The notes below the pieces were generated by a model. It ran no database searches, was not told the origin of the DNA, and saw only the letters and a list, made by a program, of their open reading frames with translations. From Candidatus Uhrbacteria bacterium (GTDB lineage Bacteria; Patescibacteriota; Patescibacteriia; UBA9934), in NCBI GenBank assembly GCA_943357745.1, contig CALRGN010000002.1, positions 1 through 36,764 on the forward strand: 36,764 bases of DNA, given 5' to 3'. This document shows positions 6,846 to 36,197 of the stretch, one piece after another. Within the stretch, counting starts at the first letter, position 1. The number at the start of each line of letters is the position of its first letter. A program made the translations under genes and the position numbers.

Positions 6846-6902
6846 AATGGCTGGGGAAAAACTGGTCGCAAAAAATCTAGATTACAGTATACTCATCCCC
6901 GT

Positions 6903-14769: not shown

Positions 14770-14808
14770 AATTCAGCCGTTGTTTAGGTTGGATATTCAT
14801 TGTAAGCC

Positions 14809-14836
14809 TTGACATCAAATCAGGTCATGATATAAT
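14809..14836 (+). promoter_or_regulatory. Near-consensus sigma70 promoter (TTGACA-16-TATAAT) for the infA/alpha operon
   Basis: TTGACA at 14809-14814 and TATAAT at 14831-14836, about 72 nt upstream of infA. Confidence 0.65.
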
Positions 14837-14908
14837 CCTCCCGTTAATTCTTTAAGTTTCCCTCATGCGTTTTGAGCGATATCTAGGTCAAATACAGTTA
14901 GGCCAAAT

Positions 14909-15124
14909 ATGGTAGAGAAAGATTTTCTTGAAGTAAGAGGCACTGTGATTGAGACCCTACCGGGAGGTGATTTCAGAGTAAAGCTTGAAACCGAGCTTGA
15001 AGTGATCGCCTATCTCGCCGGACGGTTAAGAAAAAATCGCATCAGAATCATGCCGGGAGACGACGTCAAGTGTGAGATCAGTCCATATGATCTTACCAAG
15101 GCTAGAATCACATTCCGTTTCTAA
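14909..15124 (+). CDS. infA: Translation initiation factor IF-1
   Basis: 71-aa S1-like OB protein: VIETLPGGDFRVKLE...RIRIMPGDDVKCEISPYDLTKARITFR. Confidence 0.95.
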   Translation: MVEKDFLEVRGTVIETLPGGDFRVKLETELEVIAYLAGRLRKNRIRIMPGDDVKCEISPYDLTKARITFRF

Positions 15125-15202
15125 CGGGTGGCATCTCTAGTCTCAGCCAATCATCCAAGGGTATTAACTGGGTGATTTTGCGTATTAGAAGAGTCATTTC
15201 GG

Positions 15203-15218
15203 TCAATCAATCAATCAA
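15203..15218. repeat. (TCAA)x4 tetranucleotide microsatellite in the infA-rpmJ spacer
   Basis: Read directly: ggTCAATCAATCAATCAAtt. Confidence 0.9.
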
Positions 15219-15236
15219 TTAGTAACTACTGTCTTT

Positions 15237-15350
15237 ATGAAAGTTCGCGCCTCGGTTAAGAAAATCTGTGCCAAGTGTCAAGTTGTCCGCCGAGAAGGCC
15301 GGATCAGAGTGATTTGTATTGTGCCTAAGCACAAACAAAGACAGGGTTAA
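15237..15350 (+). CDS. rpmJ: 50S ribosomal protein L36 (zinc-ribbon form)
   Basis: Not in the ORF track because it is under 60 aa. Hand translation gives [37 protein letters not shown], with C-x2-C...C-x4-H. It occupies the canonical position between infA and rpsM. Confidence 0.9.
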
Positions 15351-15373
15351 TTTATATTTATATTATATAGCGT

Positions 15374-18915: not shown

Positions 18916-18968
18916 AATACTGATAGTTTACAACCGTTACTTTGGTAAACTGGTATATTGTTAACAAT

Positions 18969-20429: not shown

Positions 20430-20432
20430 CCT

Positions 20433-21491
20433 ATGCCGAATATTTTTTTACTAACAATGGAATCGCCAGACTTTAATGGCGGAATTGGTCAGTATATTCG
20501 GAGTCTAGTAGCAATGCGACCGGATATTAAAGTAATTATCATTACCAAATCTTCATACCGCCAAATCATTAGCTCAATCAATTTTTTAATCTCTGCAACC
20601 GTCACTCTACATCGGCAAACAATTAATCAGACCACCCTTCAAGTTCATCACATCTTACCGGTTGGCACGGTGGTTTGGTTTTTGAGTTTATTTGGTGGAC
20701 CAAAATACGAAATTTTCTTGCATGGTTTAGATTTTTATTTAGCCACTTCAAATTTTAAAAAACGATTGCTCACAAAAATGATTCTAAAGCGGGCCACTCG
20801 GGTTGTGGTCAACAGTAACGCCCTAGCCCTAACAGTGGAAAGCTTTTCCGGAAAAACGCCCTTAGTTATTTATCCACCACTCACCGAATTCTTTTCCAAT
20901 CATCTCGCCCCCCAATTATCGTCAATTTTAGAGCCCGGTCCCGATCACAATCTCAGCCCCAGTCCCAACACACAAATCCAACTAATCACCGTCTCCCGAT
21001 TAGTGGCTCACAAAGGTCATGATCGGGTCTTAAAACTAATCGCCAGCGGTGAAATGTTTTCAAACCTTCATTATCATATTGTTGGGGAGGGACCAAATGA
21101 AGAAAATCTTAAAAATATCGTGCAAGAATTACAATTAAACAATCAGGTTACTTTTCACGGGACGGTTAGCAATGAAGATCTCCTAACCCTTTATCGCCAA
21201 TCCGATATTTTTATTATGCCCACCATAGTTACGCCCACTGGCAGGGAAGGGTTCGGAATGGTCTATTTAGAAGCGGCCAGTCAAGCCCTACCGGTGATTG
21301 CAAGTAATTTATCGGGGGTAAATGAGGCTGTGAGTGACAATCAAACCGGTCGGCTTATCAATTCCGACGCCGAACTCAGTCTGGTGTTAGCTGAGTTCAT
21401 TGAAAACCCCACTCTTAGAATGGCCTTAGGTCAAGCGGGACGGCAACGGGTGCTAGATTTCCTTCCAGCGCGGGTCTTTGCTAAGCTCTAG
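20433..21491 (+). CDS. GT4-family glycosyltransferase
   Basis: E-x7-E region REGFGMVYLEAASQALPVIASN in a GT-B C-terminal half. Confidence 0.75.
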   Translation: MPNIFLLTMESPDFNGGIGQYIRSLVAMRPDIKVIIITKSSYRQIISSINFLISATVTLHRQTINQTTLQVHHILPVGTVVWFLSLFGGPKYEIFLHGLDFYLATSNFKKRLLTKMILKRATRVVVNSNALALTVESFSGKTPLVIYPPLTEFFSNHLAPQLSSILEPGPDHNLSPSPNTQIQLITVSRLVAHKGHDRVLKLIASGEMFSNLHYHIVGEGPNEENLKNIVQELQLNNQVTFHGTVSNEDLLTLYRQSDIFIMPTIVTPTGREGFGMVYLEAASQALPVIASNLSGVNEAVSDNQTGRLINSDAELSLVLAEFIENPTLRMALGQAGRQRVLDFLPARVFAKL

Positions 21492-21494
21492 TCT

Positions 21495-23858
21495 ATGCCC
21501 GCTATTTCCATCATCATCCCTACCTTTAATCACGCCCGCTCTTTGCCAACAACTTTGGCTAGTATTTTTAAACAGACTTTTCAGGACTTTGAAGTAATCG
21601 TGGTTGACGATGGTTCCACCGATCAGACCTTCAATGCCGTCGCCCCGTATTTAGATAAAATCACCTATTTTAAGACCATAAATTCCGGTGCTAATTCTGC
21701 TAGAAATCGGGGCGCGGCGCGGGCGAGAGGGGACCAACTTCTATTTTGTGATGCCGACATCATCCTCGCCACTAATTTTCTTGAAATTCTCAACACCGCC
21801 TTAAAAAACAATCCATCCGCCAGCTTTGCCTACTCTGCTTTTAAATTCGGTTGGAAAAACTTCCCCTTGCAACATTGGTCCGTAACCAACCTCAAAAAAT
21901 TTAATTACATCCACACTACTAGCCTAATAAGAGCAAAAGATTTTCCCGGCTTTGATGCTAATATTAAACGCCTGCAAGATTGGGACCTATGGCTTACAAT
22001 GGCAGATCAAGGAAAGATCGGCATCGGAGTGGCAAACACATCCTTTCAGGTGGAACTTGATGGACTATCTAGAATCGGTTCGCATTGGATGCCAAAGTTA
22101 TTCTACACTCTTCCTTGGGAAAAGCTCGGTTGGGTTCCTGAAATACTCCAAAAATATTTCCAAGCCAGAGCGGTGATCGCAAATAAGCACAGCCTTGATA
22201 AAAGCTTCATCGCCACCCGGTTAGTCACTCCTCCTCCCACCACCGATGCGACCAATCTCCCCACCAGTAAGCCATTTTTCAGCTCCACTATTCTCATCGG
22301 GTTGATCGCCTTTCACGGCTTGGCCGCACTTGCCTCTACTCGCCCGGATTTAGCTACCTTTATGCTGGTTGCGATTTTCTTAACCGGCTTTTATTTGAGT
22401 ATTCGTTCTTTGCCGGCTGCCCTCGGAATCGCGCTGATTGAGTTGATGGTTGGTGGTCACGGTCATCTTCTTGAAGGAGAATTGGGCGGAGTAAGCATAT
22501 TTCTGCGACTAGCAATATTTGCCGGCATAATGAGCGGTTTTTCCGGTGGTTTACTACTCAAAAAATACAAGCCAATCGTATATTATCCTCAATTAATAAT
22601 CTATGGATCGTTGGCGCTCACCGTGATCTATGGAGTTTTGATTGGTCTAAAAACAAACCCAATCGCCACTGTCTTTGATGATAGCAATTCCTATAGCTTC
22701 CTCCTCTATTTCATCCCCCTTATCTCCATCAATTGGACCAAGGCGTTACAAGATCAGGTGGTCAGATTGTTATTTAACGGGGCAATCTTTATTGCTGGTT
22801 GGACTATCTTACAAGTTTATTTATTTAATCATCTAGGGGGTATTCCCATTCAGGATCTTTATACCTTCGTAAGAGACTCCAGAACTTTTGAAGTTACCTT
22901 GCTGAAAAATGAGTTTATAACCGCTTGGCTTGGAAATCATCCGTGGTATTTTAGAATTTTTGGGCAAGGCCAGATATTTTTAGCAGTCAGTCTTGGCGCC
23001 TGGTGGTGGGTATTAGCCACAACTAAGTGGCAGCCTAAAATCATCATTCCGTTTATTTTGATTATCACGGCACTTGTTGCAAGTTGGTCACGCTCCATCA
23101 TCATCGGAATTATTCTCGCTTTACCGATTTTATATTATTTACCAAGATTAAACAAAACCATTAAATCAATCATAATTTTGGGCTTCAAAACTTCAACCCT
23201 GGTGTTGATTAGCTTCCTTGGATTTTTTGTAATTACAATCATCCCCCCTACAGTTGACCTAACCTCAGCTTCATTTTATAAAAATACTGCCCAGAACACT
23301 CGTGATTTAGCGGTGACCAGCCGTTGGAACCTACTTCCGCCATTAAATTCGCTCATCATGGCTGATCCATTGCTGGGTAGTGGGCTGGGCAGATCCGTTA
23401 CCTACATTTCTGATGATCCCAGGATCAGAGCAGAAATCCCATCGGGAGAGCTTTCCACCTATCGCTTTGAATGGGGTTATCATGATTTGGCGGTGAAGTT
23501 TGGACTAGCTGGTTTACTAATTTGGTTACTCGCTTTAGCGGCGATAATAAAAATAATGCTCTCAGGGTCTCAAGCAATCCAACTGTCCAATCAAGCCCAC
23601 CCAACCTCCACGCCCCCTCTCACTGATTATTATTTACGAGTTTCCTATGCCTTTGGTTTAATTGTTTTAATCGGCACCAATATCTTTTCTCCTTACTTCA
23701 ATCATCCCATTGGTTTAGGCTATCTTTTATTGGGGCTAGTTTTCTGGCCCACTTTCCCTAGCATCCAACTCAAAAATCTTACCCAAACGGTCAGCGTGGT
23801 CTCTAACCAGCTCTTGTCCACTCAAGCTCCGGCCACCCGGGAACTGAACTCGCACTAA
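21495..23858 (+). CDS. Fusion protein: N-terminal GT2 glycosyltransferase plus C-terminal polytopic O-antigen ligase/polymerase-like membrane domain
   Basis: ISIIIPTFNHARSL...VIVVDDGSTD and a DAD (DxD) motif in the first ~230 aa. The remainder has roughly 12 TM helices with a SWSRSIIIG-type segment reminiscent of Wzy_C domains. Confidence 0.65.
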   Translation: MPAISIIIPTFNHARSLPTTLASIFKQTFQDFEVIVVDDGSTDQTFNAVAPYLDKITYFKTINSGANSARNRGAARARGDQLLFCDADIILATNFLEILNTALKNNPSASFAYSAFKFGWKNFPLQHWSVTNLKKFNYIHTTSLIRAKDFPGFDANIKRLQDWDLWLTMADQGKIGIGVANTSFQVELDGLSRIGSHWMPKLFYTLPWEKLGWVPEILQKYFQARAVIANKHSLDKSFIATRLVTPPPTTDATNLPTSKPFFSSTILIGLIAFHGLAALASTRPDLATFMLVAIFLTGFYLSIRSLPAALGIALIELMVGGHGHLLEGELGGVSIFLRLAIFAGIMSGFSGGLLLKKYKPIVYYPQLIIYGSLALTVIYGVLIGLKTNPIATVFDDSNSYSFLLYFIPLISINWTKALQDQVVRLLFNGAIFIAGWTILQVYLFNHLGGIPIQDLYTFVRDSRTFEVTLLKNEFITAWLGNHPWYFRIFGQGQIFLAVSLGAWWWVLATTKWQPKIIIPFILIITALVASWSRSIIIGIILALPILYYLPRLNKTIKSIIILGFKTSTLVLISFLGFFVITIIPPTVDLTSASFYKNTAQNTRDLAVTSRWNLLPPLNSLIMADPLLGSGLGRSVTYISDDPRIRAEIPSGELSTYRFEWGYHDLAVKFGLAGLLIWLLALAAIIKIMLSGSQAIQLSNQAHPTSTPPLTDYYLRVSYAFGLIVLIGTNIFSPYFNHPIGLGYLLLGLVFWPTFPSIQLKNLTQTVSVVSNQLLSTQAPATRELNSH

Positions 23859-24709: not shown

Positions 24710-25192
24710 CTAAATAATTGAATCACTTGATTTTAAGTATCTTTTCACTTTATCAATAAACAATATCCCGTCTAGATGATCAATCTCATGTTGAAAAATT
24801 ACGGAAATCAATCCACTAGCCGAAATTTCTTCAGGGTGTCCAGTTTCAGAAATAACCTCCACCACCACACTCCTATGTCTATCAACCACCCCCCATATCC
24901 CCGGCACCGATAAGCAACCTTCCTCAAACTCAATCATTTTGAATGATTTGGTTTTAATTTTGGGATTAAAATATGCTTTGATACCGGTTTTTGTTTCCAC
25001 CACAATTAGGCGTTTGTTAACCCCAATTTGCGGAGCGGCTAAACCCACTCCGTGTTCTAAAACAATCGATCGTTTCATCTCGGCTACCAATTGCTTGGTG
25101 TCAGTATTGTCAATATCGGCAAGCAAAAAATCATCCGAGACCGTTCTAAGGATCGGATTGGGATCAACAATTAGTTTAAGCCGGTTTTTCAT
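24710..25192 (-). CDS. def: Peptide deformylase
   Basis: Motifs GVGLAAPQIG, EGCLSVPG and HEIDHLDG. Its ATG overlaps the priA stop (ATGA). Confidence 0.95.
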   Translation of the reverse strand: MKNRLKLIVDPNPILRTVSDDFLLADIDNTDTKQLVAEMKRSIVLEHGVGLAAPQIGVNKRLIVVETKTGIKAYFNPKIKTKSFKMIEFEEGCLSVPGIWGVVDRHRSVVVEVISETGHPEEISASGLISVIFQHEIDHLDGILFIDKVKRYLKSSDSII

Positions 25193-26757
25193 TCAGCAAT
25201 CTTAGCAAATTTTGTGAGTTCTGACAACTCCGTCTTTACTAGTCTTGCGGGGTCATTAATTCCGATCAGAAAATCGGGGTACCAGGTTTGAATTAGGAGT
25301 TTAGCCTTCGCATCGGTAGCCGAAAACTGTAACTCCCTTGCCACTCTAACTGCTTCTAGTCTAGCCCGAGGTGAAGCGTGATTAAGATCTAATTCCCACA
25401 AAGCGTTAATAAATAACTGGCATTTTGGGAATCTGCTAGAGATTGGTGGTCGTTCCAGAAAAATTGAAGTGGTTAAAAGTATTTCCCAGTGTTCCGCTGG
25501 TTGTTCTGTTTTACTCCAAACCTCGATTTTCAATTGGGGGAAGAGTTTAAGCAACTCTTTTTTAAGGCTAGTTAATCCCATCCCAACCAGTTTTAATTCT
25601 TTATTTGGGCATACCACGCAACGCTCCGGCCACCACATTTCCGCTCCGCAAGCAGTGCACTTTAAATCATCGGCTCTAATAAGGGGCAATTCGCCGCATT
25701 GGCATAAAGGTAGCCAACCACATTTATTGCAACGCCAAAACTTACCCACCCCAACTCTATTCAAATAAATTATTGATCTTCCACCAGCAGCCAAATTGGC
25801 TGTCAGCTCCTCAACCGCCACCAATGAAAGCAGGTCGCCGGCTGGTGAATTAAGTGGTTGATGCAAATCAACAACTTCCGGTTCCGTGATTAATCTCACG
25901 GGCCAAACTGTGTTAGTTGAGAAACTAGGTAGCGGATCTTGTAGCCAAAGTTTGGCGCTGTGGGCAGAGGCTAATTTGGTAGCTAGCGTCACTGCGCTGT
26001 AGAATGGCGGCCTTCGTGATTCATTGTACTCATCATGCTCGGCTTGTAGTAAAAAAATATTAGTAAGCTTAGGAGGTAACCGGAAAATTGACGACCTAGT
26101 TCCAACTAGATGCTTAATTTTTCCAGTTCGCCAATCTGCCCAAAGTTGAGCTCGCATTTTCACTGGTAGGGAAGGGGAGTCAATTTTTACCCCCTTCACC
26201 CCCAAAAGCACCGCCGCTGTTCTGGTGAGCCACTCCTTAGTTGGTACCAGGATAAGCGAATGTCCCGGTTGCTTGAGGAGTCCGTAAATCACTCCCCAAC
26301 CGATTTTAAAATTATCACCAACTGCAACGGTCGGCGAGTTGATCGCTAAATATTGTTTAATGTCTTGAATCTCTGCTGGAGTGAAACTAAGTTGCATTGA
26401 AGCACCGTCGCTGGGAGCAAGAAAATCATTACTAGGAATTGCTCGGTCAATAATTGGGAGTCGGTCCAGACCGGCCATAGTGAGAAGTGTATTGGGGCTG
26501 GTTAAAAGCTCGGCCCCCAAATCAGCCATCAGGCCGATCTCAGCTCTAGATAGGAATCCTTTTGCTAATACCGTTGTAACTTCTTTGGCGTTATCTGGGG
26601 CGGGACCGTTTGTTCCCACTACAATCGCCCGTAAAAAACCGCCTCTAAACGGGGCTATTACCAAATCACCAACCGCTAAATTTAACTGAGAATAATAGGT
26701 GAAAACTGAATTCTGGACGGGAAAGCGTCTAATCGGCCAGAGATCAACACCCACCAT
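25189..26757 (-). CDS. priA: PriA-like primosomal protein N' homolog with degenerate helicase motifs
   Basis: It is collinear with PriA: N-terminal VGDLVIAPFRGG, VGTRSSIF, IYLNRVGV, and the Cys-rich zinc region CNKCGW..CQCG..CTACG..CVVC. It has the priA-def-fmt synteny. There is no GxGKT Walker A, and DEEH is replaced by QAEH. ATG 26757 is preferred because it avoids overlap with the upstream gene. Confidence 0.65.
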   Translation of the reverse strand: MVGVDLWPIRRFPVQNSVFTYYSQLNLAVGDLVIAPFRGGFLRAIVVGTNGPAPDNAKEVTTVLAKGFLSRAEIGLMADLGAELLTSPNTLLTMAGLDRLPIIDRAIPSNDFLAPSDGASMQLSFTPAEIQDIKQYLAINSPTVAVGDNFKIGWGVIYGLLKQPGHSLILVPTKEWLTRTAAVLLGVKGVKIDSPSLPVKMRAQLWADWRTGKIKHLVGTRSSIFRLPPKLTNIFLLQAEHDEYNESRRPPFYSAVTLATKLASAHSAKLWLQDPLPSFSTNTVWPVRLITEPEVVDLHQPLNSPAGDLLSLVAVEELTANLAAGGRSIIYLNRVGVGKFWRCNKCGWLPLCQCGELPLIRADDLKCTACGAEMWWPERCVVCPNKELKLVGMGLTSLKKELLKLFPQLKIEVWSKTEQPAEHWEILLTTSIFLERPPISSRFPKCQLFINALWELDLNHASPRARLEAVRVARELQFSATDAKAKLLIQTWYPDFLIGINDPARLVKTELSELTKFAKIAE

Positions 26758-26770
26758 AATTATTTTAAAA

Positions 26771-27505
26771 TCACTTATCGGGAGAGAAACGTGCAATTAG
26801 ATAGGCTAATTGCGACGAGCCTTCATAACTTAGCACCTCTCCTTTAATTTGCCAACCATCCATCAACCCCAGGAGAAAACCAATCGTCCGATCAATCGCC
26901 GCTGTTGTTTCATCAGTTCTATTGTTTGCCGCGGTGAGCAGACCAGTCACATTCCCACCTTTTAATTTAGTTACAATCTCCTCACTAATCGCTAAACCAA
27001 ATCCAGGCAGATTACCCACCGCCACTACCACCACCTTGCGGGCAATTTGGTCGCAAACCTCTCTTAAAATTTGACCGATATGATAGTGCTCTTTGGCGCT
27101 AGCAGTACCAATCAGCACCGGAAGAATTTTAAGGACCGGATTTTTATCAGCCAGTAATTGGTTGAGTACAATGCTAGCTTGAAGTGGCAGTTGATTGTTG
27201 GTGTTCAAGGTAACCGGCCAGTCAAACTGGCGTAACACTCTCTGCAGTTTATCAATTAATTGAAAATCAGGATGATAAGTAGCCGGTAATCCCAAATCAC
27301 CTAACTCCAATAAAGAGCCAAGATAAGGATCGGCAATTTCAAAACTGATTGCCTCATCATTGTGGAGATCGCTTTGGACAATTAAAATAATCGTCTCGGG
27401 TTGGATTAATCGCAAGTCATTTTTAACTTCATTTAAATAAGCGGCCGTGGAACTAAATTCACCAAATTCCGGCAAAGCAGGAACCAAAAAACCGGCCAAC
27501 AACAT
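26771..27505 (-). CDS. Hypothetical protein (weak resemblance to the LigB/Memo-type fold)
   Basis: 244-aa ORF tightly coupled to its neighbours. The fold assignment is only a weak impression from the N-terminal FLVPALPEF segment, and the usual His there is absent. Confidence 0.4.
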   Translation of the reverse strand: MLLAGFLVPALPEFGEFSSTAAYLNEVKNDLRLIQPETIILIVQSDLHNDEAISFEIADPYLGSLLELGDLGLPATYHPDFQLIDKLQRVLRQFDWPVTLNTNNQLPLQASIVLNQLLADKNPVLKILPVLIGTASAKEHYHIGQILREVCDQIARKVVVVAVGNLPGFGLAISEEIVTKLKGGNVTGLLTAANNRTDETTAAIDRTIGFLLGLMDGWQIKGEVLSYEGSSQLAYLIARFSPDK

Positions 27506-27506
27506 A

Positions 27507-28865
27507 TTAGTTAACTGGCAAACCCAACTTGTGTACTTTTAACCCCTCTCGGGAAACCGTAACAATATTGCCAAAGTTATAGCCTAGGCTCAAAAAGGTT
27601 GCTTCAGAGGCGATCGGTCGCGCCTGTCCCTCTGAAATCACATAAACGGCCGGATCACCAGCAGTTTTAAGCAATGTCCCCTCCGGAAGTAACAGTGGCC
27701 CAATTTCTCGATACTGCTCCACTATGGAAGCGGTAGCTTGCTCCGGATTCCTCCCTGGGAATTTTAAACTAGCGATAATCGGATCAACGATTAGTTGTCT
27801 CTCACCGGCCGAGATATAGTACATACTAGTTGTGCCCGGTAGGGTCAACAAACGGTCAGCAACGCCAGCGCTGGCTTGGATTGGTCTACCAATTGAGTAA
27901 TCCAAGAGGTCTTTGGCTTTTACCTGCACTAATTCATCTTCGGAATAACCGATTAATTTATAATCAGCCTCAGAAATTAATCGCAAGCTGTCATTTGCAA
28001 ATAAATATCGTGTCCCAACTTCCGTAATCAAGAGTGAATAATTAGGCCAGCTAATTTTGCTTCCTTCAGGATAGGTGGCGATGGTTTGCTCAGAAACTTC
28101 AATAATGAGTTGGGGGTTATAACGGGAATGAAGCACGCTCTCGGTGGCAATCTCGCGTCGCTCTCCGTTTTTTAAAACCCAAACAATCGGATCGGTGGCG
28201 GTTTTTAATAAAGTTCCGTTGGGGTAACTTTTACCAAACCAGCCTTGCCATAACTTAGCAAAATTTTCATTCCCGTGGAGATGAGGGGTATAAGAGTACA
28301 AAGCGGCGGTAGCAGCGTTGACTGGTGTAACTTTTAGGCCGTTAACAACTACAGAAATTCCGGGGCCAAACCCACCGGAGGTGGAACCAGTATTTTTAAT
28401 GTCATCCAAATATCCAGCGGTAAACTGCATCGCAGCTGAATTCACTTGCTTACCAAATCCTTGCCAGCGCGCAAGGGCGGGATCATTCATACTACAGCTA
28501 TCGCAGACTCCGTATCCAGTGGCCCAATCAAGTTGTTTTTGAGTTGGTTGACTGGCGCTAATCAAACTTTGTTCTTTTTGTAGCAAGACTAATAACACTT
28601 GCGGATTAAGCCCGTTCTGTTTGGCCGAACGCCAGATAATATCGGCCGCAGTTCTAAGCCGACCCTGATAGTCAGCTGTTCGAAAACTTCCTAAATAACC
28701 CTTTTGCAAAAAATCCCTAATTTGAGCCATGTTCATGGCGCCAACATTGGTCATCTCTGCATCAGAGATAATGAAGTTTGGATCAAACGCAAACGCCGAT
28801 TGCTGTACCCCAAGTAAACTAGCCAATAAACTTGTAACCACCGCCCAGTTTTGATACCTTTTCAT
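27507..28865 (-). CDS. Secreted protein: conserved N-terminal domain plus four C-terminal ~55-60-aa repeat modules
   Basis: Signal peptide MKRYQNWAVVTSLLASLLGVQQSAFA. The LNPQVLLVLLQKEQSL motif follows. Repeated modules are DPIVWVLKNGERREI, GTRYLFANDSLRLI, SMYYISAGERQLI and DPAVYVISEGQARPI. Confidence 0.6.
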   Translation of the reverse strand: MKRYQNWAVVTSLLASLLGVQQSAFAFDPNFIISDAEMTNVGAMNMAQIRDFLQKGYLGSFRTADYQGRLRTAADIIWRSAKQNGLNPQVLLVLLQKEQSLISASQPTQKQLDWATGYGVCDSCSMNDPALARWQGFGKQVNSAAMQFTAGYLDDIKNTGSTSGGFGPGISVVVNGLKVTPVNAATAALYSYTPHLHGNENFAKLWQGWFGKSYPNGTLLKTATDPIVWVLKNGERREIATESVLHSRYNPQLIIEVSEQTIATYPEGSKISWPNYSLLITEVGTRYLFANDSLRLISEADYKLIGYSEDELVQVKAKDLLDYSIGRPIQASAGVADRLLTLPGTTSMYYISAGERQLIVDPIIASLKFPGRNPEQATASIVEQYREIGPLLLPEGTLLKTAGDPAVYVISEGQARPIASEATFLSLGYNFGNIVTVSREGLKVHKLGLPVN

Positions 28866-29018: not shown

Positions 29019-29528
29019 ATGAATTTATCTATTGGTTCCAAGGCCCCAGCGATCTGTCAGGTCATTATTGAGGTTCCTCGTGGCAGTCAGAATAAATATG
29101 AGTTTGATAAAGAGCAGGGGATAATGAGGTTGGATCGAGTATTGTTTGCCCCAATGTTCTACCCTTGTGACTACGGTTTCTTTCCTGAAACCTTGGGCGG
29201 TGATGGTGATCCGCTAGATGCTCTGGTTATGGTAACCAACCCGCTCTTTCCTGGGGTAGCGGTGGATGTTAGACCAATAGGTGTCCTCATTATGAGTGAT
29301 GATAAAGGTCAAGATGAAAAAATCCTTACTGTCGCTATCAATGACCCGCGCTTCAAGCACATTAATGATCTAACTGATGTGCCAGAACATATTCGTAACG
29401 AGATCTCATTTTTCTTTGAATCTTACAAAATCCTGGAGAAGAAAATCACAACAATAGAAGGCTGGAAAGACGCCTCCGCCGCCAAGGCAATAATTGTTGA
29501 AGGAATGAATCGCGCCAAGCAGAGTTAG
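29019..29528 (+). CDS. ppa: Family I inorganic pyrophosphatase
   Basis: [33 protein letters not shown]. Confidence 0.9.
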
Positions 29529-32161
29529 GAGCTCTTAAGAACAATCTGGTTATTCTTGCAGTCAATGTTAACCTTAGAATCTTCTTTGATCTCTCCACTA
29601 ATCAGTTTACTCGACAACTCATCTAGCACCACCGTTTGTATTAGTCTCTTCAGTGGTCGGGCGCCGTACTGTTGGTCGTAACCTCTTTTGCCTAACCAGT
29701 TTATTGCGGCTGTAGTTACTGTAATGTGGATCCGTTTTTTGGCGTCTAGCCGTTTGGCTAGCGACGCCACTTGAATTGCCACAATTTTACACACTTCAGC
29801 TTCCGTTAACGGATCAAAAATAATTACTTCATCCACCCGATTCAAAAATTCTGGTTTAAAATATTCTTTCAATCGCTCCAGTAGGGCTTTGTTAGTGGCT
29901 TGATGATCATTCTCGTTATTATTCCCAAACCCAATTCCATTAGCCTTGCCCTTAGATAGAATCAAGTCGGAACCAATGTTACTAGTCATGATCACAATTG
30001 TGTTACTGAAGTTTACCGTTCTCCCTTTTGAATCAGTTAGCCTACCATCGTCCAATACCTGAAGCAGGGAATTGAAAACATCGGGATGTGCTTTCTCAAT
30101 TTCATCCAACAGTAAAACCGAATAAGGCTGTCTCCTCACTTTCTCAGTCAGTTGCCCCGCCTCTTCATAGCCCACATATCCCGGTGGCGCGCCGATCAGT
30201 TTAGAAACCGAGTGCTTTTCCATATACTCACTCATGTCTAATCTCACCAACGCTTTTTCATCATTAAACATAAACCGCGCCAACGCTTTGGCAAGTTCTG
30301 TTTTTCCCACTCCGGTTGGCCCCATGAAAATAAAAGACCCAATCGGTTTCCGCTCTTCACTAATGCCGGCTCTTGAACGCCGCAAAGCCCGGCTCACGGC
30401 AGAGATTGCCGGCGCTTGCCCAATTACTTCTTTGCCAAGCTCCGCTTCCATTCTGGATAATTTATTTAGTTCGCCCTCTAGCATTTTGGTAACAGAAATT
30501 CGGGTCCATTTAGAAACCACTTCCGCAATCTCTTGCTCGGTAATTACCTCCTTAAGCATCCCCCGCTCAGCTTGGAATTTTCGGAGCTCCTCTTCAAGAT
30601 TCTGTAGCGCTTGCCGTTTGCTAGGCAAAGTGGCGTATCTAATCTCTGCCACCGTTTGCAAGTTACCCCGCCGCTCCTCATATTCCGCTTGATTGGATAA
30701 ACTATCAATCTCGGATTTCAACTGCCGAAGACCGGCAATTCTTTCTTTCTCTCCATTCCAACGCACTTCCAACTCTCCCGCGTTTTCCGATACTTCCGCT
30801 AAATCTTTTTCAATTTCTGCTAATCGTAATTTAGAATCCTTATCATCCTCTTGTAATAGAGCCTGTTTGGCAATCTGCAAACGAATTTGTTCTCTTTTCA
30901 AACGATCCAGCTCCACCGGCATTGATTCAATTTGAAGCCGCAACGCCGCCGCCGCCTCATCAATTAAATCCACCGCCTTATCCGGTAATTGACGGTCAGA
31001 AATATATCTTGAAGATAGTTCAACCGCAGAGACAATCGCGTTATCACTAATCCTCACACCATGATGAATCTCATAGCGTTCCTTCAAACCACGCAACATT
31101 GAAATCGCGTCGTCAACACTCGGTTCCACCACAAATATCGGCTGAAACCTACGCTCTAAAGCTTGATCCTTCTCAATGTGTTTTTGATATTCTCTAGTTG
31201 TGGTGGCGCCAATCACTCTTAATTCTCCCCGTGCCAAAGCCGGTTTCAATAAATTAGACGCATCCATGGGGGATTCATCGCCCTTGCCTGCACCCACCAA
31301 AGTATGCAACTCATCAATAAACAAAATATATTTTCCATCGGCTTGTTGCACCTCTCGCACCAACGCCTTCAATCTTTCTTCAAACTCACCCCTAAATTTA
31401 GTACCAGCAATCAATGCCCCCAAATCAAGCGCCACCACTTCTCGCTTAGCCAAGCTCTCCGGCACATCACCGCTCACAATTCTCTGGGCCAATCCTTCCA
31501 CAATGGAAGTCTTGCCCACTCCAGCTTCACCAATCAAAACCGGATTATTTTTAGTGCGTCTTGATAAAACTTGCATCACCCGCCTAATCTCTTCTTCTCT
31601 TCCAATGGTCGGGTCCAGCTTTCCGTGCCTTGCTCGTTCCGTTAAATTTAAGGAATATTTCTCAATCGCTTGATATTTACTTTCTGGTTCCGGAGAATTC
31701 ACTCTTTGATTGCCTCGCAGCGCCTTTAACGCCTCCAAAACCCGATCTTCTTTTAATTGATGATCGGCACAAAGAGACGCTAAACCCGGTTCGTTTATTA
31801 ATCCCAAAAAAAGATGCTCAGTGGAAATATATTCATCGCCAAACTGACGCGCCTTGTTCAATGCTAATTGCAGTACTCCGGCCAACGCCGGCGTGAGCAT
31901 CACTTGGCCTGGTCCCACCTGCCCAACGGTGGGATGTTTAGGAAGTTCAGACAAAAGGCGGTCAATATCACCTCTAATGGCCGGCAAACTAACATTTAAA
32001 TGTTTCACTAAAGTCCGCACAAATCCATCCTCCTGAATGATCAATGCCGCCAAGAGATGGAGCGGTTCAACCCCTTGTTGACCATGATCATGAGCGATCA
32101 ATTGCGCCTGTTGAATTGCCTCTTGCGATCGGCTCGTAAAATTATTTGGAATCATCGGCAT
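29525..32161 (-). CDS. clpB: ATP-dependent chaperone/disaggregase ClpB
   Basis: 878 aa with a Clp N domain, NBD1 GEAGVGKTS, a long coiled-coil middle domain and NBD2 GPTGVGKTE. It overlaps the ppa stop by 4 nt in convergent orientation. Confidence 0.95.
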
Positions 32162-32252: not shown

Positions 32253-32666
32253 ATGAAGAGTCTAGCCAATGTTTGGCAGGGGATTTATCTCTTGCTTATT
32301 ATAAACCTATTTTTATCTGGAGCACACGCCTATTATTATTGGCCCAATTTGGACTTATTTATGCACACCGCTGGCGGATTTTTATTGGCCGCCTGGGGCT
32401 GGCAGGCATGCGGTCTCCGAAATTATCCTTGGCAAATCGCCAGTCTGACCATGATCGGGATCTCTCTTTCAGTTGGTTGGGCCTATGAAGTCCTGGAATT
32501 TATGGGTGATGCCTTCTATGGTGCGGGCAGTAAGTCACTGGTACCACTTCAGGTTGGCTTGGGCGATACTTTGCTTGATTTTGCTTGTGATTTGTTAGGA
32601 GCGGTGGTTGCCTTTATTTTCTATTCCACCCGTATTGCCAGCCCGTATGAATCACCCCTTAAGTAA
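32253..32666 (+). CDS. Small integral membrane protein, unknown function
   Basis: 137-aa ORF with about 4 TM segments. Confidence 0.5.
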   Translation: MKSLANVWQGIYLLLIINLFLSGAHAYYYWPNLDLFMHTAGGFLLAAWGWQACGLRNYPWQIASLTMIGISLSVGWAYEVLEFMGDAFYGAGSKSLVPLQVGLGDTLLDFACDLLGAVVAFIFYSTRIASPYESPLK

Positions 32667-34983
32667 GTTTTCAATCTTTGATCTAGAGCTCGATAACCTC
32701 ACTCCAGCGGAATTACTAAATGATTTTTCGGAGACACTCGGTCAAACAATTGAAACCATGGTTGTGATCACTCCCAATCCCGAGATGATTGTACTCGCAG
32801 AGAAAAATAAAAAGTTTAAAAAAATTATACAATCGGCTAATCGGCTACTACTTGATGGCACTGGATTACGATTCGCTCTATGGTGGCGGTATGGACCGGT
32901 TACACCAGATTGCCTCACCGGTGTGAATGCTTTGAAACTCTTAGCAACCGCTTGTGCCCACAAAAAAGTTGAATTATGTATAATTGGCGGCCCCAGTGAT
33001 TATATCTTGGACGACTGTGCCAAACAGCTGGTGGCCCTCAATCCCTCGCTAAAAATTTCTTGGCAGAATCCCGGGTTGATTGACGCTATTGCCCCGCAAT
33101 TACCAGAAGCCACCCTTAGGTATCTGAAGCAAGAAAAACCCAGAGCAATCGCGGTTGGCCTGGGAATGTTCAAGCAGGAAAATATAATAATTGAGCTGAA
33201 AAAATTATTTCCCACGGAGCGAATTCTAATTGGAGTGGGGGGTGCGTTTGATATTATTTCCGGTCACCTGCCAGCCGCACCAAACTGGCGTGGCCGAGAT
33301 CAAATAATAAAAGCGGTGGGGGATTGGTGGTGGCGTTGGTATTTAGAACCACACCGAACCAACCGAATGTTTACAGCTTTGGTGAAGTTTCCTATACTCT
33401 TTCTATCTCAATACGGACGCACCATTAATTGGCGGTCTAGATTTCAAGATTGTGAACAAACTTTAAGGGCAAAACTACTAAAAAAATCGGCTATGTCGCA
33501 ACCCAAGCAACCAATCAACAAAGTCCGAGTAAGAATCGCTCCATCACCTACCGGATTTATTCACATTGGTACCCTTAGAACCGCTTTGGTCAATTATCTT
33601 TTTGCAAAAAAACAAGGGGGAGATTTTATTATTCGGATTGAAGATACTGATGCCAAAAGATTTGTGCCCAACGCCATTGAGAGCATGCTCAAAACTCTGA
33701 TGGCCTTGGGGCTAGTAGCCGATGAAGGACCAACTTTGGTGAATGATCAACTTAGTGAAAGCGGTCCCTTAGGGCCCTATCAACAATCCAAGCGCTTGCC
33801 ACTCTACCTTGATGCCGCTCAAAACTTGCTCAAGAACGGCCAGGCCTACTACTGTTTCTGTTCAGAGGCAGTTTTGGAAGAATTGCATACCTCCCAAGTG
33901 TCCGCCAAACAAACTCCCAAGTATGATCGCCGTTGTTTCGCTCTCACCGGCGTGCAAGTACAGGATAAACTAGCTCGCTTGGAACCCCATGTGATTAGAC
34001 TGCTAATTCCAGAAGGTGAATCAAGTTGGAACGATTTGGTAAGAGATCAAATCGTTATCAACCATAAAGATTTAGACGACCAAATTCTCATCAAATCAGA
34101 CGGTTTTCCCACCTATCATTTAGCGGTGGTAGTGGATGATCACCTGATGCAGATCTCCCATGTGCTAAGAGGGGAAGAATGGATCTCTTCTACCCCCAAA
34201 CATCTGATTTTATACAAGGCTTTTGGTTGGGGCTCACCAGAATTTGGACACCTTTCCCTACTTGTAAACCCTGATCGGAGCAAACTTTCTAAGCGCCAGG
34301 GGGATGTGGCAGTGGAAGAGTTTTTGAACAAAGGCTATCTCAAAGAAGCGCTAATTAATTTCATCGGCACTTTTGGTTTCAACCCCCAAGGAGACCGGGA
34401 GTTGTATTCAATTGAGGAATTACAATCGGCCTTTGATATTAGTAAATTTAAATCTAGTCCGGTGGCGTTGAATCTTCCCAAATTAGATTGGATGAACAGT
34501 CATTATCTCAAAACCTTAGGGGAGGGTGAATTATTAAACCGGTTCTCACCATTCTCCAAATTTCCGCTCACCAACCCTACGGTAGTTAGGGCGGTGTTGA
34601 TGGCGCGGGCGCGGGCGGTGGTTCTCCCTGATTTGAACGCCGGCCCAGAAGCGTTGCTTGAACGGCGGGATTATGAACCTACATTGCTAATGAACAAAAA
34701 CCCAAGCCCAGCGGAAACTAGAGCGGTTTTAATTTGGTTGAAACTGATCATTAGTGGTTGGTCGGATGAGACCTTCACCGCGCTTTCAATCCTAGAGAAT
34801 CTATTGAAAGAGGAAATTCTAGCAACTGAAAGAAAAAATGGTCTAGTACTTTGGCCCCTCCGAGTAGCTTTAAGTGGTCAAGCCCAGTCCGCCAGTCCGT
34901 TTGAATGTCTTTGGGTCTTAGGAAAGACTGAATCATTAGCTCGTCTTGAGCTCGCCATCGCCAATTTAGATGCTATAATTTAG
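32647..34983 (+). CDS. gltX: In-frame fusion: WecG/TagA-family glycosyltransferase domain (~280 aa) plus full-length glutamyl-tRNA synthetase (~496 aa)
   Basis: N-terminal part: ITPNPEMIV, LLLDGTGL, GLGMFKQE, GVGGAFDIISG..AAPNW, WRWYLEPHR, the WecG/TagA pattern. From ATG 33493: RIAPSPTGFIHIGTLRTAL (HIGH-type motif), IRIEDTD, KLSKRQGD (KMSKS-type motif). No stop codon lies between the two parts in this frame, and the other two frames are closed. Confidence 0.7.
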   Translation: MNHPLSKFSIFDLELDNLTPAELLNDFSETLGQTIETMVVITPNPEMIVLAEKNKKFKKIIQSANRLLLDGTGLRFALWWRYGPVTPDCLTGVNALKLLATACAHKKVELCIIGGPSDYILDDCAKQLVALNPSLKISWQNPGLIDAIAPQLPEATLRYLKQEKPRAIAVGLGMFKQENIIIELKKLFPTERILIGVGGAFDIISGHLPAAPNWRGRDQIIKAVGDWWWRWYLEPHRTNRMFTALVKFPILFLSQYGRTINWRSRFQDCEQTLRAKLLKKSAMSQPKQPINKVRVRIAPSPTGFIHIGTLRTALVNYLFAKKQGGDFIIRIEDTDAKRFVPNAIESMLKTLMALGLVADEGPTLVNDQLSESGPLGPYQQSKRLPLYLDAAQNLLKNGQAYYCFCSEAVLEELHTSQVSAKQTPKYDRRCFALTGVQVQDKLARLEPHVIRLLIPEGESSWNDLVRDQIVINHKDLDDQILIKSDGFPTYHLAVVVDDHLMQISHVLRGEEWISSTPKHLILYKAFGWGSPEFGHLSLLVNPDRSKLSKRQGDVAVEEFLNKGYLKEALINFIGTFGFNPQGDRELYSIEELQSAFDISKFKSSPVALNLPKLDWMNSHYLKTLGEGELLNRFSPFSKFPLTNPTVVRAVLMARARAVVLPDLNAGPEALLERRDYEPTLLMNKNPSPAETRAVLIWLKLIISGWSDETFTALSILENLLKEEILATERKNGLVLWPLRVALSGQAQSASPFECLWVLGKTESLARLELAIANLDAII

Positions 34984-34985
34984 CC

Positions 34986-36197
34986 ATGGCAAAACCCTTC
35001 AGGATCGCAACTCTATCAATAATCGGCGCTCTCTTGAGTTTGGTTTTAAGCATTCCGCTCGGAACTCTAGCAGCCGAGATTGATTTAGACGCTTTAAAAG
35101 ACCAACTTAGATCAAAACAAGCTGAAGTTAATCTGCTAGACACCCGCTTGGCGGAATACAATCAAACCCTAAAAGAACTATCCGGAAAATCGTCAAGCTT
35201 AAGAAATGACATCAATTATTTGGATGGACAGGTGATTGCCCTAGACTTGGATATTCTCACTCTTCAATCTCAACAAGAAGAAAAAGAGTTGAGACTCCGG
35301 GTGTTAGCGCAAGAAAAAATCAAAACTGAACTGCGGTTGGTGAATCAAAAAGAATTACTCAAACGCCTACTAAAAGAGCTGAACGCTAAAGATCAAGGGA
35401 GCGATAATATGCTCACCCACGCTTTGGTAGCACCAGCATTAAACGGTTGGTTGGAAGGCATGGCCCAGTTAGAACAATTTTCTTTGAGTTTAAAAACGGT
35501 CCTTGGTGCCACCAAAGGCGCAAAGGCACAATTAGAACGAGATGCAAATACTCAAACGGTTGCCCTCAATTCACTATTGGAAATTGAACAAGAATTAATC
35601 GTTAAGCAAGATCAACTAGAGCAATCCAAAACTGCCAAAGTAATTCTCCGTTCACAAACCAAAGAATCAGAAAATCAATACACCGTTTTAGTGAGCGAGC
35701 TTCGGTCAGAACAAAGTGCGATTGAATCGGCGCTACAGGCGCTGCAAGATGAAATTCAAAACCGATTGCTGGCCGAGGATGACCAAAATGGCGGCCCCAC
35801 GGTTATCACCTGGCCGGTTGACGGCATCATCACCGCTCTTTTTCATGATCCCGACTACCCCTTTAGAAATCTCTTTGAACATTCCGGATTAGACATTGCC
35901 GTTCCCCAGGGCACGGCGGTGGCTGCCGCCGCTCCCGGAGTGGTGGCTTGGGCCAAGACCGGAAAAATGTACGGGAATTACATCATGATCATCCATGCCA
36001 ATGGGTTGGCCACCTTGTATGCCCATTTATCAAGACTAGATGTCAGCCAAGATCAACTAGTTAAACGCGGGCAAATCATTGGTCTGTCAGGCGGTCGCGC
36101 CGGTTCTGCGGGTGCCGGTTTCTCCACTGGTCCTCATTTGCATTTTGAGGTCCGCCAAGACGGCATCCCTTCCAATCCACTCTCATTTTTACCCTGA
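34986..36197 (+). CDS. M23-family peptidoglycan metalloendopeptidase with an N-terminal coiled coil (EnvC-like architecture, catalytic residues intact)
   Basis: Signal/anchor segment, a ~230-aa heptad-rich Q/E/L region, then HSGLDIAV (HxxxD) and GPHLHFEV (HxH). Confidence 0.8.
   Translation: MAKPFRIATLSIIGALLSLVLSIPLGTLAAEIDLDALKDQLRSKQAEVNLLDTRLAEYNQTLKELSGKSSSLRNDINYLDGQVIALDLDILTLQSQQEEKELRLRVLAQEKIKTELRLVNQKELLKRLLKELNAKDQGSDNMLTHALVAPALNGWLEGMAQLEQFSLSLKTVLGATKGAKAQLERDANTQTVALNSLLEIEQELIVKQDQLEQSKTAKVILRSQTKESENQYTVLVSELRSEQSAIESALQALQDEIQNRLLAEDDQNGGPTVITWPVDGIITALFHDPDYPFRNLFEHSGLDIAVPQGTAVAAAAPGVVAWAKTGKMYGNYIMIIHANGLATLYAHLSRLDVSQDQLVKRGQIIGLSGGRAGSAGAGFSTGPHLHFEVRQDGIPSNPLSFLP

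Follow-up and report, generated by a model that had tools for sequence, protein, structure and literature searches.

Background

Characterised homologues of the WecG/TagA family transfer the second sugar onto undecaprenyl-PP-GlcNAc at the cytoplasmic face of the membrane. In TagA of Thermoanaerobacter italicus (structures 5WB4, 5WFG and 7MPK), the active site is completed by a C-terminal appendage that also binds the membrane (PMC6493773, PMC8784642). Aminoacyl-tRNA synthetases (aaRSs) have been found fused to membrane- or envelope-directed enzymes in LysX, an MprF-LysRS protein of Mycobacterium (PMC2713425), and in ErdS, an AspRS-DUF2156 protein of fungi (PMC13219428).

The window analysed here, a stretch of 36,764 nucleotides from a Candidatus Uhrbacteria bacterium, carries a gene that resembles LysX and ErdS in uniting a complete aaRS with such an enzyme in one polypeptide. 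However, LysX and ErdS combine an aa-tRNA-dependent transferase with an aaRS that is an additional copy dedicated to feeding it, whereas in the window protein the partner is a nucleotide-sugar glycosyltransferase without known use of aa-tRNA, and the aaRS, a glutamyl-tRNA synthetase (GluRS), is encoded by the syntenic housekeeping gene. In its origin the gene does not differ in principle from Rosetta stone fusions that form by stop loss at an ATGA overlap, and it belongs to that class: the genes of unfused relatives are adjacent with a 4-nt overlap, and the fusions are sporadic and recurrent, with unrelated linkers. What is unusual is the pairing itself, and the breadth of the wecG-gltX linkage.

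The initial annotation of this locus, made from the sequence, did not recognise the architecture as a known one. This holds for the literature, as our searches on WecG with gltX and on aaRS fusions in CPR/Patescibacteria found no description of it; several fused proteins are nevertheless already present in NCBI, JGI and ENA, labelled only as “glutamate--tRNA ligase”. The novelty is also narrower than first proposed, in that fusions of envelope enzymes with aaRSs are known from LysX and ErdS, while the partner domain is different here.

Architecture of the fused gene

The features of the locus are as follows, with the evidence for each in brackets.

29525 to 32161, minus strand: ClpB gene, divergent, the conserved left border of the cluster (synteny)
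32253 to 32666, plus strand: small ORF of 137 aa, candidate DUF2238 membrane protein (synteny; its own Pfam score is below threshold)
32647 to 34983, plus strand: fused wecG-gltX ORF, 778 aa (ORF calling, Pfam, NCBIfam)
32647 to 33300, plus strand: WecG/TagA core domain (GT26, GT-E fold), aa 1–218 (HMM, TagA alignment, predicted fold)
33301 to 33414, plus strand: TagA-type C-terminal appendage helices, aa 219–256 (TagA alignment, model)
33430 to 33495, plus strand: extra C-terminal helix, aa 262–283 (alignment, models)
33480 to 33486, plus strand: A7 homopolymer (sequence; strain comparison)
33493 to 33495, plus strand: in-frame ATG (M283), candidate internal GluRS start (sequence)
33496 to 33519, plus strand: short low-confidence linker, aa 284–291, SQPKQPIN (full-length model)
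33520 to 34491, plus strand: GluRS catalytic domain (PF00749), aa 292–615 (Pfam, NCBIfam, alignment)
33562 to 33573 and 34282 to 34296, plus strand: HIGH-type motif HIGT and KMSKS-type motif KLSKR, respectively (alignment)
34531 to 34959, plus strand: GluRS anticodon-binding domain (PF19269), aa 629–771 (Pfam, structure alignment)
34986 to 36197, plus strand: M23 peptidase gene, a conserved cluster member, 2 nt past the fusion stop codon

Reading of the ORFs and their translations gives a 778-aa protein on the plus strand, from ATG 32647 to the stop at 34983, with an alternative start at TTG 32608 that has AGGAG 6 nt on its 5′ side. The initial annotation had described a complete WecG/TagA domain joined in frame to a complete GluRS with HIGH- and KMSKS-type motifs, and ORF, Pfam and NCBIfam evidence agree with this description. 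The three Pfam families proposed for the check all match and place the domain boundaries: PF03808 (WecG) at aa 67–241 (E 1.8e-23, 83.6 bits against a cutoff of 27.4, profile positions 4–167 of 168), PF00749 at aa 292–615 (E 3e-92) and PF19269 at aa 629–771 (E 3e-17). The motifs are located at H306-I-G-T309 and K546-L-S-K-R550. The N-terminal part, whose failure to match a WecG profile had been named as a possible objection, matches both the WecG HMM and the TagA fold. At the junction, an example peptide of which is LLKKSAMSQPKQPINK (aa 275–295), the fusion frame alone is open, as had been reported, and stops occur in both remaining frames. The in-frame WecG-GluRS fusion is genuine, with an uninterrupted and reproducible frame; each of the two halves is complete and evolves under purifying selection. 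For the Candidate Phyla Radiation it is a clean and well-supported example of an essential aaRS joined to a membrane-associated envelope enzyme.

The 137-aa ORF on the 5′ side extends 20 nt into the gene that starts at ATG 32647. It is read as a membrane protein solely because its syntenic counterparts match DUF2238 (PF09997).

Ancestral state and independent origins of the fusion

Uhrbacteria-like Patescibacteria, including unfused relatives, share the cluster ClpB (on the opposite strand), DUF2238, wecG, gltX and M23 peptidase. In the unfused relatives the gap between wecG and gltX is −4 (ATGA), 1, 32 or 100 nt, with the stop of the first gene and the start of the second usually overlapping as ATGA. 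Among 80 species-representative wecG loci, gltX lies downstream on the same strand in about 58, and in about 40 of these the genes overlap or are at most 40 nt apart (automated scoring, with a few loci mis-scored). Adjacency is found in roughly three quarters of the sampled loci with enough flank, in MAGs named Uhrbacteria, Magasanikbacteria, Buchananbacteria, Komeilibacteria, Kerfeldbacteria and Parcubacteria. Ancestrally, wecG and gltX formed a pair in which the stop of the first gene and the start of the second overlapped or almost abutted. This linkage is widely conserved in Patescibacteria and has seemingly not been discussed so far.

Comparison of orthologous loci, as the initial annotation had suggested, reveals the same fusion in relatives. 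Proteins P0002–P0006 contain all three Pfam domains and are 43–47% identical to the window protein, and L080, from a Candidatus Uhrbacteria MAG, has all three domains as well. In a neighbour-joining tree of GluRS with 200 bootstrap replicates, fused L001 pairs with unfused L016 in 200 of 200 replicates and fused L004 with unfused L012 in 178, while L004, L005 and L006 are monophyletic in one replicate and all fused proteins together in none. The linkers of the fused proteins vary in length and show no sequence relationship to one another. In-frame fusion therefore arose at least five times independently, each time in a tip lineage that is nested among unfused relatives; the wecG stop was lost through a small indel or because a short spacer came to be read through. 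At least five origins from an ATGA-overlapping pair amount to a natural replicate experiment on the fusion of operon neighbours. One further candidate, L025, was rejected as a fused locus on account of a stop at position 3720 in its ORF.

WecG and GluRS were modelled separately; a mixed alignment placed only 10–19% of WecG residues in WecG columns. A representative-library search with the WecG domain, which is no measure of how widespread the fusion is, gave a best match of 36% identity and no fused protein among the best 150. The 120 matches listed in a WecG profile search are all unfused proteins of 215–310 aa, and this search is not a census because its word filter misses the known fused proteins, even though these were in its own query.

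We consider it likely that the window gene is a genuine and recurrent in-frame fusion of translationally coupled neighbours, encoding a bifunctional protein of independent modules, and that the fusion is probably near-neutral. The host would be one of the Uhrbacteria-like Patescibacteria (CPR) of fresh water or groundwater. The product would then be a bifunctional protein of ~88 kDa whose two modules act independently, with the TagA-like module held on the membrane by its C-terminal amphipathic helices and GluRS hanging from those helices by a short flexible linker. GluRS would charge tRNA-Glu and, as a non-discriminating enzyme, probably also tRNA-Gln, and the fusion would fix a 1:1 stoichiometry and place GluRS at the membrane. 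Repeated independent merging points to an easy and tolerated merger rather than to new biochemistry. The fusion is most likely selectively near-neutral, with no new reaction. The parts are otherwise ordinary and the likeliest mechanism requires no new biochemistry, although if GluRS is indeed tethered to the membrane, this would be relevant to the organisation of translation in very small cells.

A candidate internal start for GluRS

A full-length structure model gives pLDDT above 90 for GluRS and below 50 at aa 280–288, with a pTM of just 0.65, and shows no confident interface between the halves. The low-confidence stretch includes M283 (ATG 33493), which lies 10 codons upstream of the point where unfused GluRS proteins begin. 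As the initial annotation noted, this ATG could serve as an internal start, and one can envisage that the fusion ORF is real and yet initiation at ATG 33493 yields most of the GluRS as a free protein of ~56 kDa, with the full-length product minor or additional.

We judge such dual products unlikely, while acknowledging several features that agree with them. Bacterial GluRS usually begins 2–3 residues before the R-x-R-[IF]-A-P-S-P-T-G strand, and every fused protein has a Met at or near this ancestral start. In L001, L004, L005, L006 and L080 the Met is 1–3 residues before R-x-R-[IF]-[AP]-P-S-P-T-G, its counterpart in the window protein being M283. The DNA on the 5′ side of 33493 is A-rich, as at other starts here, and the GGGGGGAGAAG stretch of L001 ends 8 nt before its internal ATG. 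An SD-like 4-mer occurs in three of the 31 start regions of the window, one of which is the TTG 32608 start itself, where the AGGAG may be a chance occurrence. Because the genes of the window hardly use Shine-Dalgarno motifs, the SD scan is uninformative for an internal start, and the missing motif is no argument against one. However, the Met of the window protein is off the ancestral position, where N-K now stands; a single Met per ~30 residues is close to the expectation by chance; and most other fusions are young tips, in which a retained Met may be plain inheritance. The three metatranscriptomes from the same study gave no contigs on this locus.

The WecG/TagA domain

The N-terminal half matches TagA over the full length of the latter and has the same fold. 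Its AF2 model has a pLDDT of 91.7, and the best 14 Foldseek matches of this model are all TagA/TarA (E 2e-12 to 3e-10, target TM 0.85–0.88); the next match has an E of 1e-3, so that the significant matches are TagA/TarA only. Aligned with TagA (7MPK) over residues 3–236, the window protein has T42, N44, D70, Q177 and E178 in the places of the catalytic-pocket residues T37, N39, D65, Q167 and E168. Across 96 homologues the first four are invariant and E178 is ~90% conserved. Appendage helices are predicted at 219–233 and 235–256, and carry R230, R237 and R240, the invariant equivalents of TagA R214, R221 and R224. The catalytic Thr/Asn/Asp, the Gln-Glu pair and the three-arginine C-terminal appendage of TagA are thus retained.

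Differences from TagA are also evident. Identity is only ~23–36%, and the equivalents of R83 and R199 are replaced. Furthermore, the window protein has an extra C-terminal helix (aa 262–283), common to the Patescibacteria clade, which aligns with the tail of the clade's unfused WecG proteins, and its C-terminus is not free but runs on into a 55-kDa GluRS. NCBIfam TIGR00696 (wecG_tagA_cpsF) scores 70.7 bits, barely above its cutoff of 69, and the TarA (NF041710) and WecG (NF002980) equivalogs reach 67 and 52 bits, far under their cutoffs of 350 and 323. On these sequence scores the assignment holds for the superfamily (WecG/TagA/CpsF, GT26), and the donor sugar is left unassigned because both equivalog scores are so far below their cutoffs.

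The window WecG is the most divergent of the family, with a PF03808 score of 84 bits versus ~150–167 in relatives. It departs from the family at 10 of 48 highly conserved positions, including TagA R83, which becomes C89, and R199, which becomes A210. R83, which is highly conserved, is modelled beside the lipid-alpha diphosphate; its site holds Arg in 98% of 95 homologues, and R-H-T-G is retained there in every other relative, fused or unfused. In view of these ten deviations, the activity or substrate of the window WecG may differ from those of its relatives.

Alternatively, the N-terminal domain could be a pseudo-enzyme that is decaying or has been repurposed, for example as a membrane anchor or a regulatory appendage of GluRS. 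The lowest Pfam score in the family, the loss of the R83 and R199 equivalents and of eight more conserved positions, and its long branch all fit this idea. We nonetheless find it improbable, as differences between strains are 20 synonymous against 6 non-synonymous, and all 15 positions that are invariant among the 96 WecG proteins are kept in the window protein, including the catalytic Asp, Thr and Asn and the appendage arginines. The divergence is, moreover, lineage-wide, with ClpB, M23 peptidase and GluRS likewise less similar to their relatives. Purifying selection by itself would equally fit a functional non-catalytic domain.

The GluRS domain and possible functional coupling

The C-terminal half resembles bacterial GluRS (TIGR00464; 1J09; unfused Candidatus Uhrbacteria GluRS) in having both domains complete, together with the HIGH and KMSKS motifs, and differs in its ~290-residue N-terminal glycosyltransferase extension. 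NCBIfam TIGR00464 (gltX_bact) scores 458.4 bits against a cutoff of 289.95 and is covered at 1–465 of 470 profile positions, and the domain aligns to residues 3–468 of 468 of T. thermophilus GluRS (1J09) and to 24–504 of 4GRI. In a 72-sequence GluRS alignment H306, G308 and K546–R550 are invariant and conservation of I307 is at least 90%; T309 is absent from the conserved positions of this alignment, although a nine-sequence alignment shows it invariant. The aligned GluRS proteins also share C403, C405 and C430 without exception. By its identical place in the cluster ClpB, DUF2238, wecG, gltX, M23, the window GluRS is the orthologue of unfused gltX. JGI labels some homologues “nondiscriminating”.

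Functional coupling could in principle explain both the linkage and the repeated fusion, if GluRS were tethered because Glu-tRNA or GluRS feeds or regulates a membrane-proximal process, on the model of LysX, ErdS and the Fem-type users of aa-tRNA. Adjacency of wecG and gltX in about three quarters of the sampled loci from several Patescibacteria groups exceeds what an accidental neighbourhood would lead one to expect, and thus leaves room for a functional link. The recurrence of the fusion, envelope-gene neighbours (at this locus M23 peptidase and DUF2238, in relatives alanine racemase) and the precedents LysX (PMC2713425) and ErdS (PMC13219428) can be cited in the same sense. The coupling might act through a membrane-localised GluRS supplying Glu-tRNA for envelope modification, or through reciprocal regulation of wall glycopolymers and translation; we hold either mode to be very improbable, and if true, each would add a novel form of aaRS moonlighting, found in ultra-small bacteria. 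Tethering as the reason for linkage and fusion seems to us likewise very improbable. Pfam detects on the fused protein no aa-tRNA transferase domain (DUF2156/MprF, Fem), the glycosyltransferase partner being PF03808 only, and GT26 enzymes use UDP-sugars. By synteny GluRS is the housekeeping orthologue and probably not an extra paralogue, the fusions are confined to tree tips, as neutral events predict, and the predicted linker is flexible, with no confident interface.

Continuity of the reading frame across the A7 tract

The initial annotation had cautioned that an artefact or slippage at the A7 tract should be excluded, and proposed looking for A6 or A8 versions. We inspected the junction in assembled contigs (Logan) of seven public runs from three studies, and neither version occurs in any of the seven assemblies. 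Four of the runs, X1, X2, X3 and X5, which come from two studies, give contigs with an identical junction. Runs X4, X6 and X7 contain a variant groundwater strain, ~97–98% identical to the window, with 47 substitutions and 0 gaps in a contig covering 32577–34185, and 27 substitutions and 0 gaps in one covering 33385–34980. In this strain A at 33480 is replaced by T, a synonymous change (CTA to CTT) that interrupts the tract as T plus A6 and leaves the frame unchanged.

Strain differences in the WecG part bear the mark of the fusion frame: 20 of 26 are at third codon positions, and 20 of 26 are synonymous in this frame, versus 3 and 2 in the other frames. The synonymous pattern carries on in the fusion frame through the tail and linker. 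The junction DNA of P0002–P0006 is without an A-tract, and that of L004, L005 and L006 without any homopolymer. We also rejected the idea that A7 is a conserved device for slippage, transcriptional or translational, because the tract is broken in the sister strain and missing from the other fusions.

That the locus is truly two genes, with wecG ending ~16 codons past the tract and gltX starting from 33493, is already effectively refuted: the homopolymer does lie directly 5′ of the internal ATG, and an A6 version would give two overlapping genes, overlap being the norm among relatives, but seven runs from three studies are without an indel, the variant strain keeps the frame with T plus A6, the fusion-frame pattern of synonymous change extends through tail and linker, and a comparable tract is missing from the other fused genes. 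In MAG annotations, the “glutamate--tRNA ligase” entries of ~780 aa are therefore real, probably bifunctional genes and not frameshift errors.

Some details of the tract differ from those first given. It occupies 33480–33486 instead of 33479–33485, and the spacing to ATG 33493 is six bases (TCGGCT) rather than eight. The hypothetical A6 version does run into a stop, as had been stated, at a distance of 16 codons rather than ~17, reading KNRLCRNPSNQSTKSE before the stop.

The fused gene and its reading frame

The initial annotation described a WecG/TagA domain fused in frame to a glutamyl-tRNA synthetase (GluRS). A single ORF does carry all three Pfam domains proposed for it, each matching well over its gathering score, and it encodes 778 aa when counted from ATG 32647. 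With the NCBIfam bacterial GluRS equivalog TIGR00464 (cutoff 290 bits) the protein reaches 458 bits, and it barely passes the WecG superfamily model TIGR00696 (70.7 against a cutoff of 69).

Features of the fused gene and its product
TTG 32608 or ATG 32647 through the stop codon (last base 34983), + strand: fused wecG-gltX gene, a single ORF
aa 67–241: WecG/TagA/CpsF domain (Pfam PF03808)
aa 292–615: GluRS/GlnRS catalytic domain (Pfam PF00749)
aa 629–771: anticodon-binding domain (Pfam PF19269)
33480–33486, + strand: run of seven A, followed by TCGGCT and then ATG 33493

As first read, the fusion frame alone is open across the junction, both alternative frames containing stops. The A-run ahead of the GluRS ATG is likewise present, one base to the right of its original placement. 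The concern that an indel in this run had created the fusion was not borne out by assembled contigs from seven public metagenome runs containing the sequence. Over 33200–33800, contigs from X1, X2 and X3, drawn from two studies, match the window exactly, with no indels, and the X5 contig is likewise identical. A second strain, approximately 97–98% identical, is present in three groundwater runs (X4, X6 and X7); one of its contigs covers 32577–34185 with 47 substitutions, another 33385–34980 with 27, both without gaps. In this strain A>T at 33480, a synonymous change (CTA to CTT), converts the run to T followed by six A and leaves the frame intact. Because independent assemblies and a diverged strain agree, an artefact at the junction, as judged from assembled contigs, is very unlikely.

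The differences between the strains also identify the translated frame. The WecG part has 26 listed differences; read in the fusion frame, 20 of them are synonymous, and 20 occupy third codon positions. The same differences give just 3 and 2 synonymous changes in the alternative frames. The pattern extends through the tail and linker into GluRS. Mostly synonymous differences to either side of the junction thus mark the fused frame as the one under selection there.

Fusions in relatives and their origins

The same fusion occurs in related gltX loci. All three Pfam domains recur in five more clusters returned by a protein search (P0002–P0006, from NCBI MAGs, JGI, ENA and Logan assemblies). These align with the window protein over its whole length at 43–47% identity; their linkers are of unequal lengths and show no sequence relation. 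The GTDB species representatives contain one further fusion, L080 (MGDT01000007.1, a Candidatus Uhrbacteria MAG), with the three domains confirmed. At the junctions of the five search clusters the other frames are closed in each instance, and no homopolymer was found in the junction DNA of L004, L005 and L006. The contigs of these five clusters repeat the layout seen in the window: ClpB (− strand), then a gene for a DUF2238 membrane protein, then the fusion and an M23 peptidase, often followed by peroxiredoxin, alanine racemase and SerRS.

Among unfused GluRS proteins, the closest (P0007–P0010 and others, named Uhrbacteria or Patescibacteria) are 52–55% identical and have an identical cluster layout, with a separate wecG of 267–292 aa immediately upstream of gltX. 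In L008, L012 and L016 the wecG stop and gltX start share an ATGA; the gap measures 1 nt (L014), 32 nt (L009) or 100 nt (L011) in the others. Because unfused relatives have the two genes adjacent or overlapping in the same cluster, the fusion is the result of losing the stop codon that separated a closely coupled gene pair. The A-run of the window may be a scar of the underlying single-nucleotide indel, since it lies exactly where such an indel would turn an overlapping pair into a fusion.

In neighbour-joining trees of the GluRS part (200 bootstrap replicates; a modest method applied to a single protein), fused proteins are dispersed among unfused ones, and the window protein takes a lone position on a long branch.

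Bootstrap support for groupings of GluRS parts
L001 (fused) with L016 (unfused): 200/200
L005 with L006 (both fused): 200/200
L004 (fused) with L012 (unfused): 178/200
L080 (fused) with L017 (unfused): 139/200
L004, L005 and L006 together: 1/200
All six fused proteins together: 0/200

These scattered positions, together with the unrelated linkers, indicate at least five independent fusions: in the window lineage, L001, L004, L005/L006 and L080. The nesting of fused tips beside unfused sisters is robust despite the limits of neighbour joining. Every sampled fusion lies at a tree tip, with no deep clade of fused proteins in the sample, which is how near-neutral events, easily made and easily lost, would look.

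The gene pair is widespread. In 80 species-representative GTDB wecG loci (L017–L096) retrieved with a WecG profile, gltX lies downstream on the same strand in about 58, of which about 40 overlap or are at most 40 nt apart by a script that scored some loci wrongly (L025, L067, L084, and probably L049 and L059). Another 17 loci with approximately 3 kb of flank have no gltX, and the remaining 11 are truncated. Where enough flank is available, about three quarters of the loci show the order wecG then gltX, often with the 4-nt ATGA overlap. The linkage is seen in MAGs named Uhrbacteria, Magasanikbacteria, Buchananbacteria, Komeilibacteria, Kerfeldbacteria and Parcubacteria.

Two other Patescibacteria-type MAGs encode a WecG whose C-terminus is fused to a NUDIX hydrolase domain (PF00293; L067:2986–4197, E 1e-12; L084:2980–4230, E 5e-19), with gltX directly downstream of the gene, so the WecG C-terminus tolerates other partners also.

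The two modules

The WecG part aligns with full-length Thermoanaerobacter italicus TagA (7MPK residues 3–236). The TagA pocket comprises T37, N39, D65, R83, Q167 and E168, and R214, R221 and R224 sit on the C-terminal appendage, which is required for catalysis and binds the membrane (PMC6493773). The window protein has equivalents in T42, N44, D70, Q177, E178, R230, R237 and R240, but Cys and Ala in place of R83 and R199. It keeps 15 of 15 columns invariant in 96 family members and 38 of 48 positions with conservation of 85% or more. An AlphaFold model of this part (96 sequences; mean pLDDT 91.7) has significant PDB matches to TagA/TarA only (target TM 0.86–0.88), with appendage helices at aa 219–256 and another helix at aa 262–283, which aligns with the C-terminal tails of this clade's unfused WecG proteins. 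Scores for the TarA and WecG equivalog models fall well under their cutoffs, and we therefore assign no donor sugar.

The WecG domain is the most divergent member of its family. As the lineage's ClpB, M23 peptidase and GluRS are also uniformly less similar to their relatives, this divergence is a lineage-wide effect, not decay of a single domain, and the WecG part is evidently under purifying selection, as judged from its substitutions. A small ORF upstream of the fusion (32253–32666, + strand) has no Pfam match at E≤0.01, although DUF2238 (PF09997) is matched by the syntenic counterpart in every relative, a further sign of unusual lineage-wide divergence.

Over its whole length, the GluRS part aligns with solved structures of bacterial GluRS (for example, 1J09 residues 3–468), with class I motifs present and C403, C405 and C430 invariant among aligned GluRS proteins. 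In the full-length model GluRS has pLDDT above 90; the WecG part is weaker, just six sequences covering that region. With residues 280–288 below 50, a pTM of 0.65 and no confident inter-module interface predicted, the model fits two modules joined by a short flexible tether.

Proposed function and alternatives

The fused gene would yield one polypeptide of approximately 88 kDa. Its N-terminal module is probably a TagA-like peripheral membrane enzyme, whose C-terminal helices would fold on the membrane to complete the active site, moving a sugar from a UDP-sugar onto a polyprenyl-PP-GlcNAc acceptor. The C-terminal module is the putative syntenic housekeeping GluRS, and would be kept close to the membrane because the tether begins directly after the membrane-binding helices. 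Judging by homology, we saw no sign that either activity would depend on the other.

Free GluRS could possibly be made by internal initiation at ATG 33493: every fusion retains a Met near the old start, and the genome scarcely uses SD motifs. However, the window Met has shifted from its ancestral place, and the remaining retention is accounted for by chance and recency. Functional coupling, as in LysX and ErdS, is attractive in view of the conserved linkage, but here the partner is not an aminoacyl-tRNA transferase and, judged by synteny, the synthetase is probably not an extra paralogue. That the N-terminal domain is a pseudo-enzyme is argued against by its conserved catalytic residue set and by the substitution pattern between strains, although the lost arginines (R83 and R199 equivalents) leave some doubt. 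A sequencing or assembly artefact at the A-tract is effectively excluded.

Among the 31 predicted start regions of the window, an SD-like motif occurs within 25 nt upstream only at 13144, 17657 and TTG 32608, A/T-rich sequence standing in place of SD motifs. Among fused genes, L001 (GCA_022565055.1) alone has such a motif ahead of the old gltX start: at 6840–6870, a run of six G and GGAGAAG ending 8 nt upstream of the internal ATG.

Novelty and the rest of the window

We found no paper on the WecG-GluRS architecture and no discussion of wecG-gltX linkage in the literature, and databases name the fused proteins plainly as glutamate--tRNA ligase. Fusions of aminoacyl-tRNA synthetases with other enzymes, and of operon neighbours, are both well known; the interest lies mainly in the repeated origin and the broad linkage in Patescibacteria.

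Elsewhere in the window, a glycan-assembly trio at 18942–23858 (+ strand) comprises a Wzx/MurJ-like flippase (PF01943), a glycosyltransferase of family GT4 and a GT2 protein of 787 aa, and suggests synthesis of a lipid-linked glycan by the organism. The Pfam GT2 match covers only the first ~130 residues of the last, leaving ~650 without a match. Six sizeable ORFs (142–535 aa) lack any match to Pfam at E≤1e-4.

ORFs without a Pfam match
19–1428, + strand
6903–7331, + strand
1429–2565, − strand
25189–26796, − strand
26771–27505, − strand
27507–28865, − strand

A stretch of approximately 600 nt (14770–15373) separating the Na+/H+ exchanger gene from rpsM contains no ORF of at least 100 aa and may include small genes (such as infA or rpmJ) or a promoter region. 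The sole Rfam or ARAGORN match in the window is a tRNA-Pro(GGG) at 2645–2719 (− strand).
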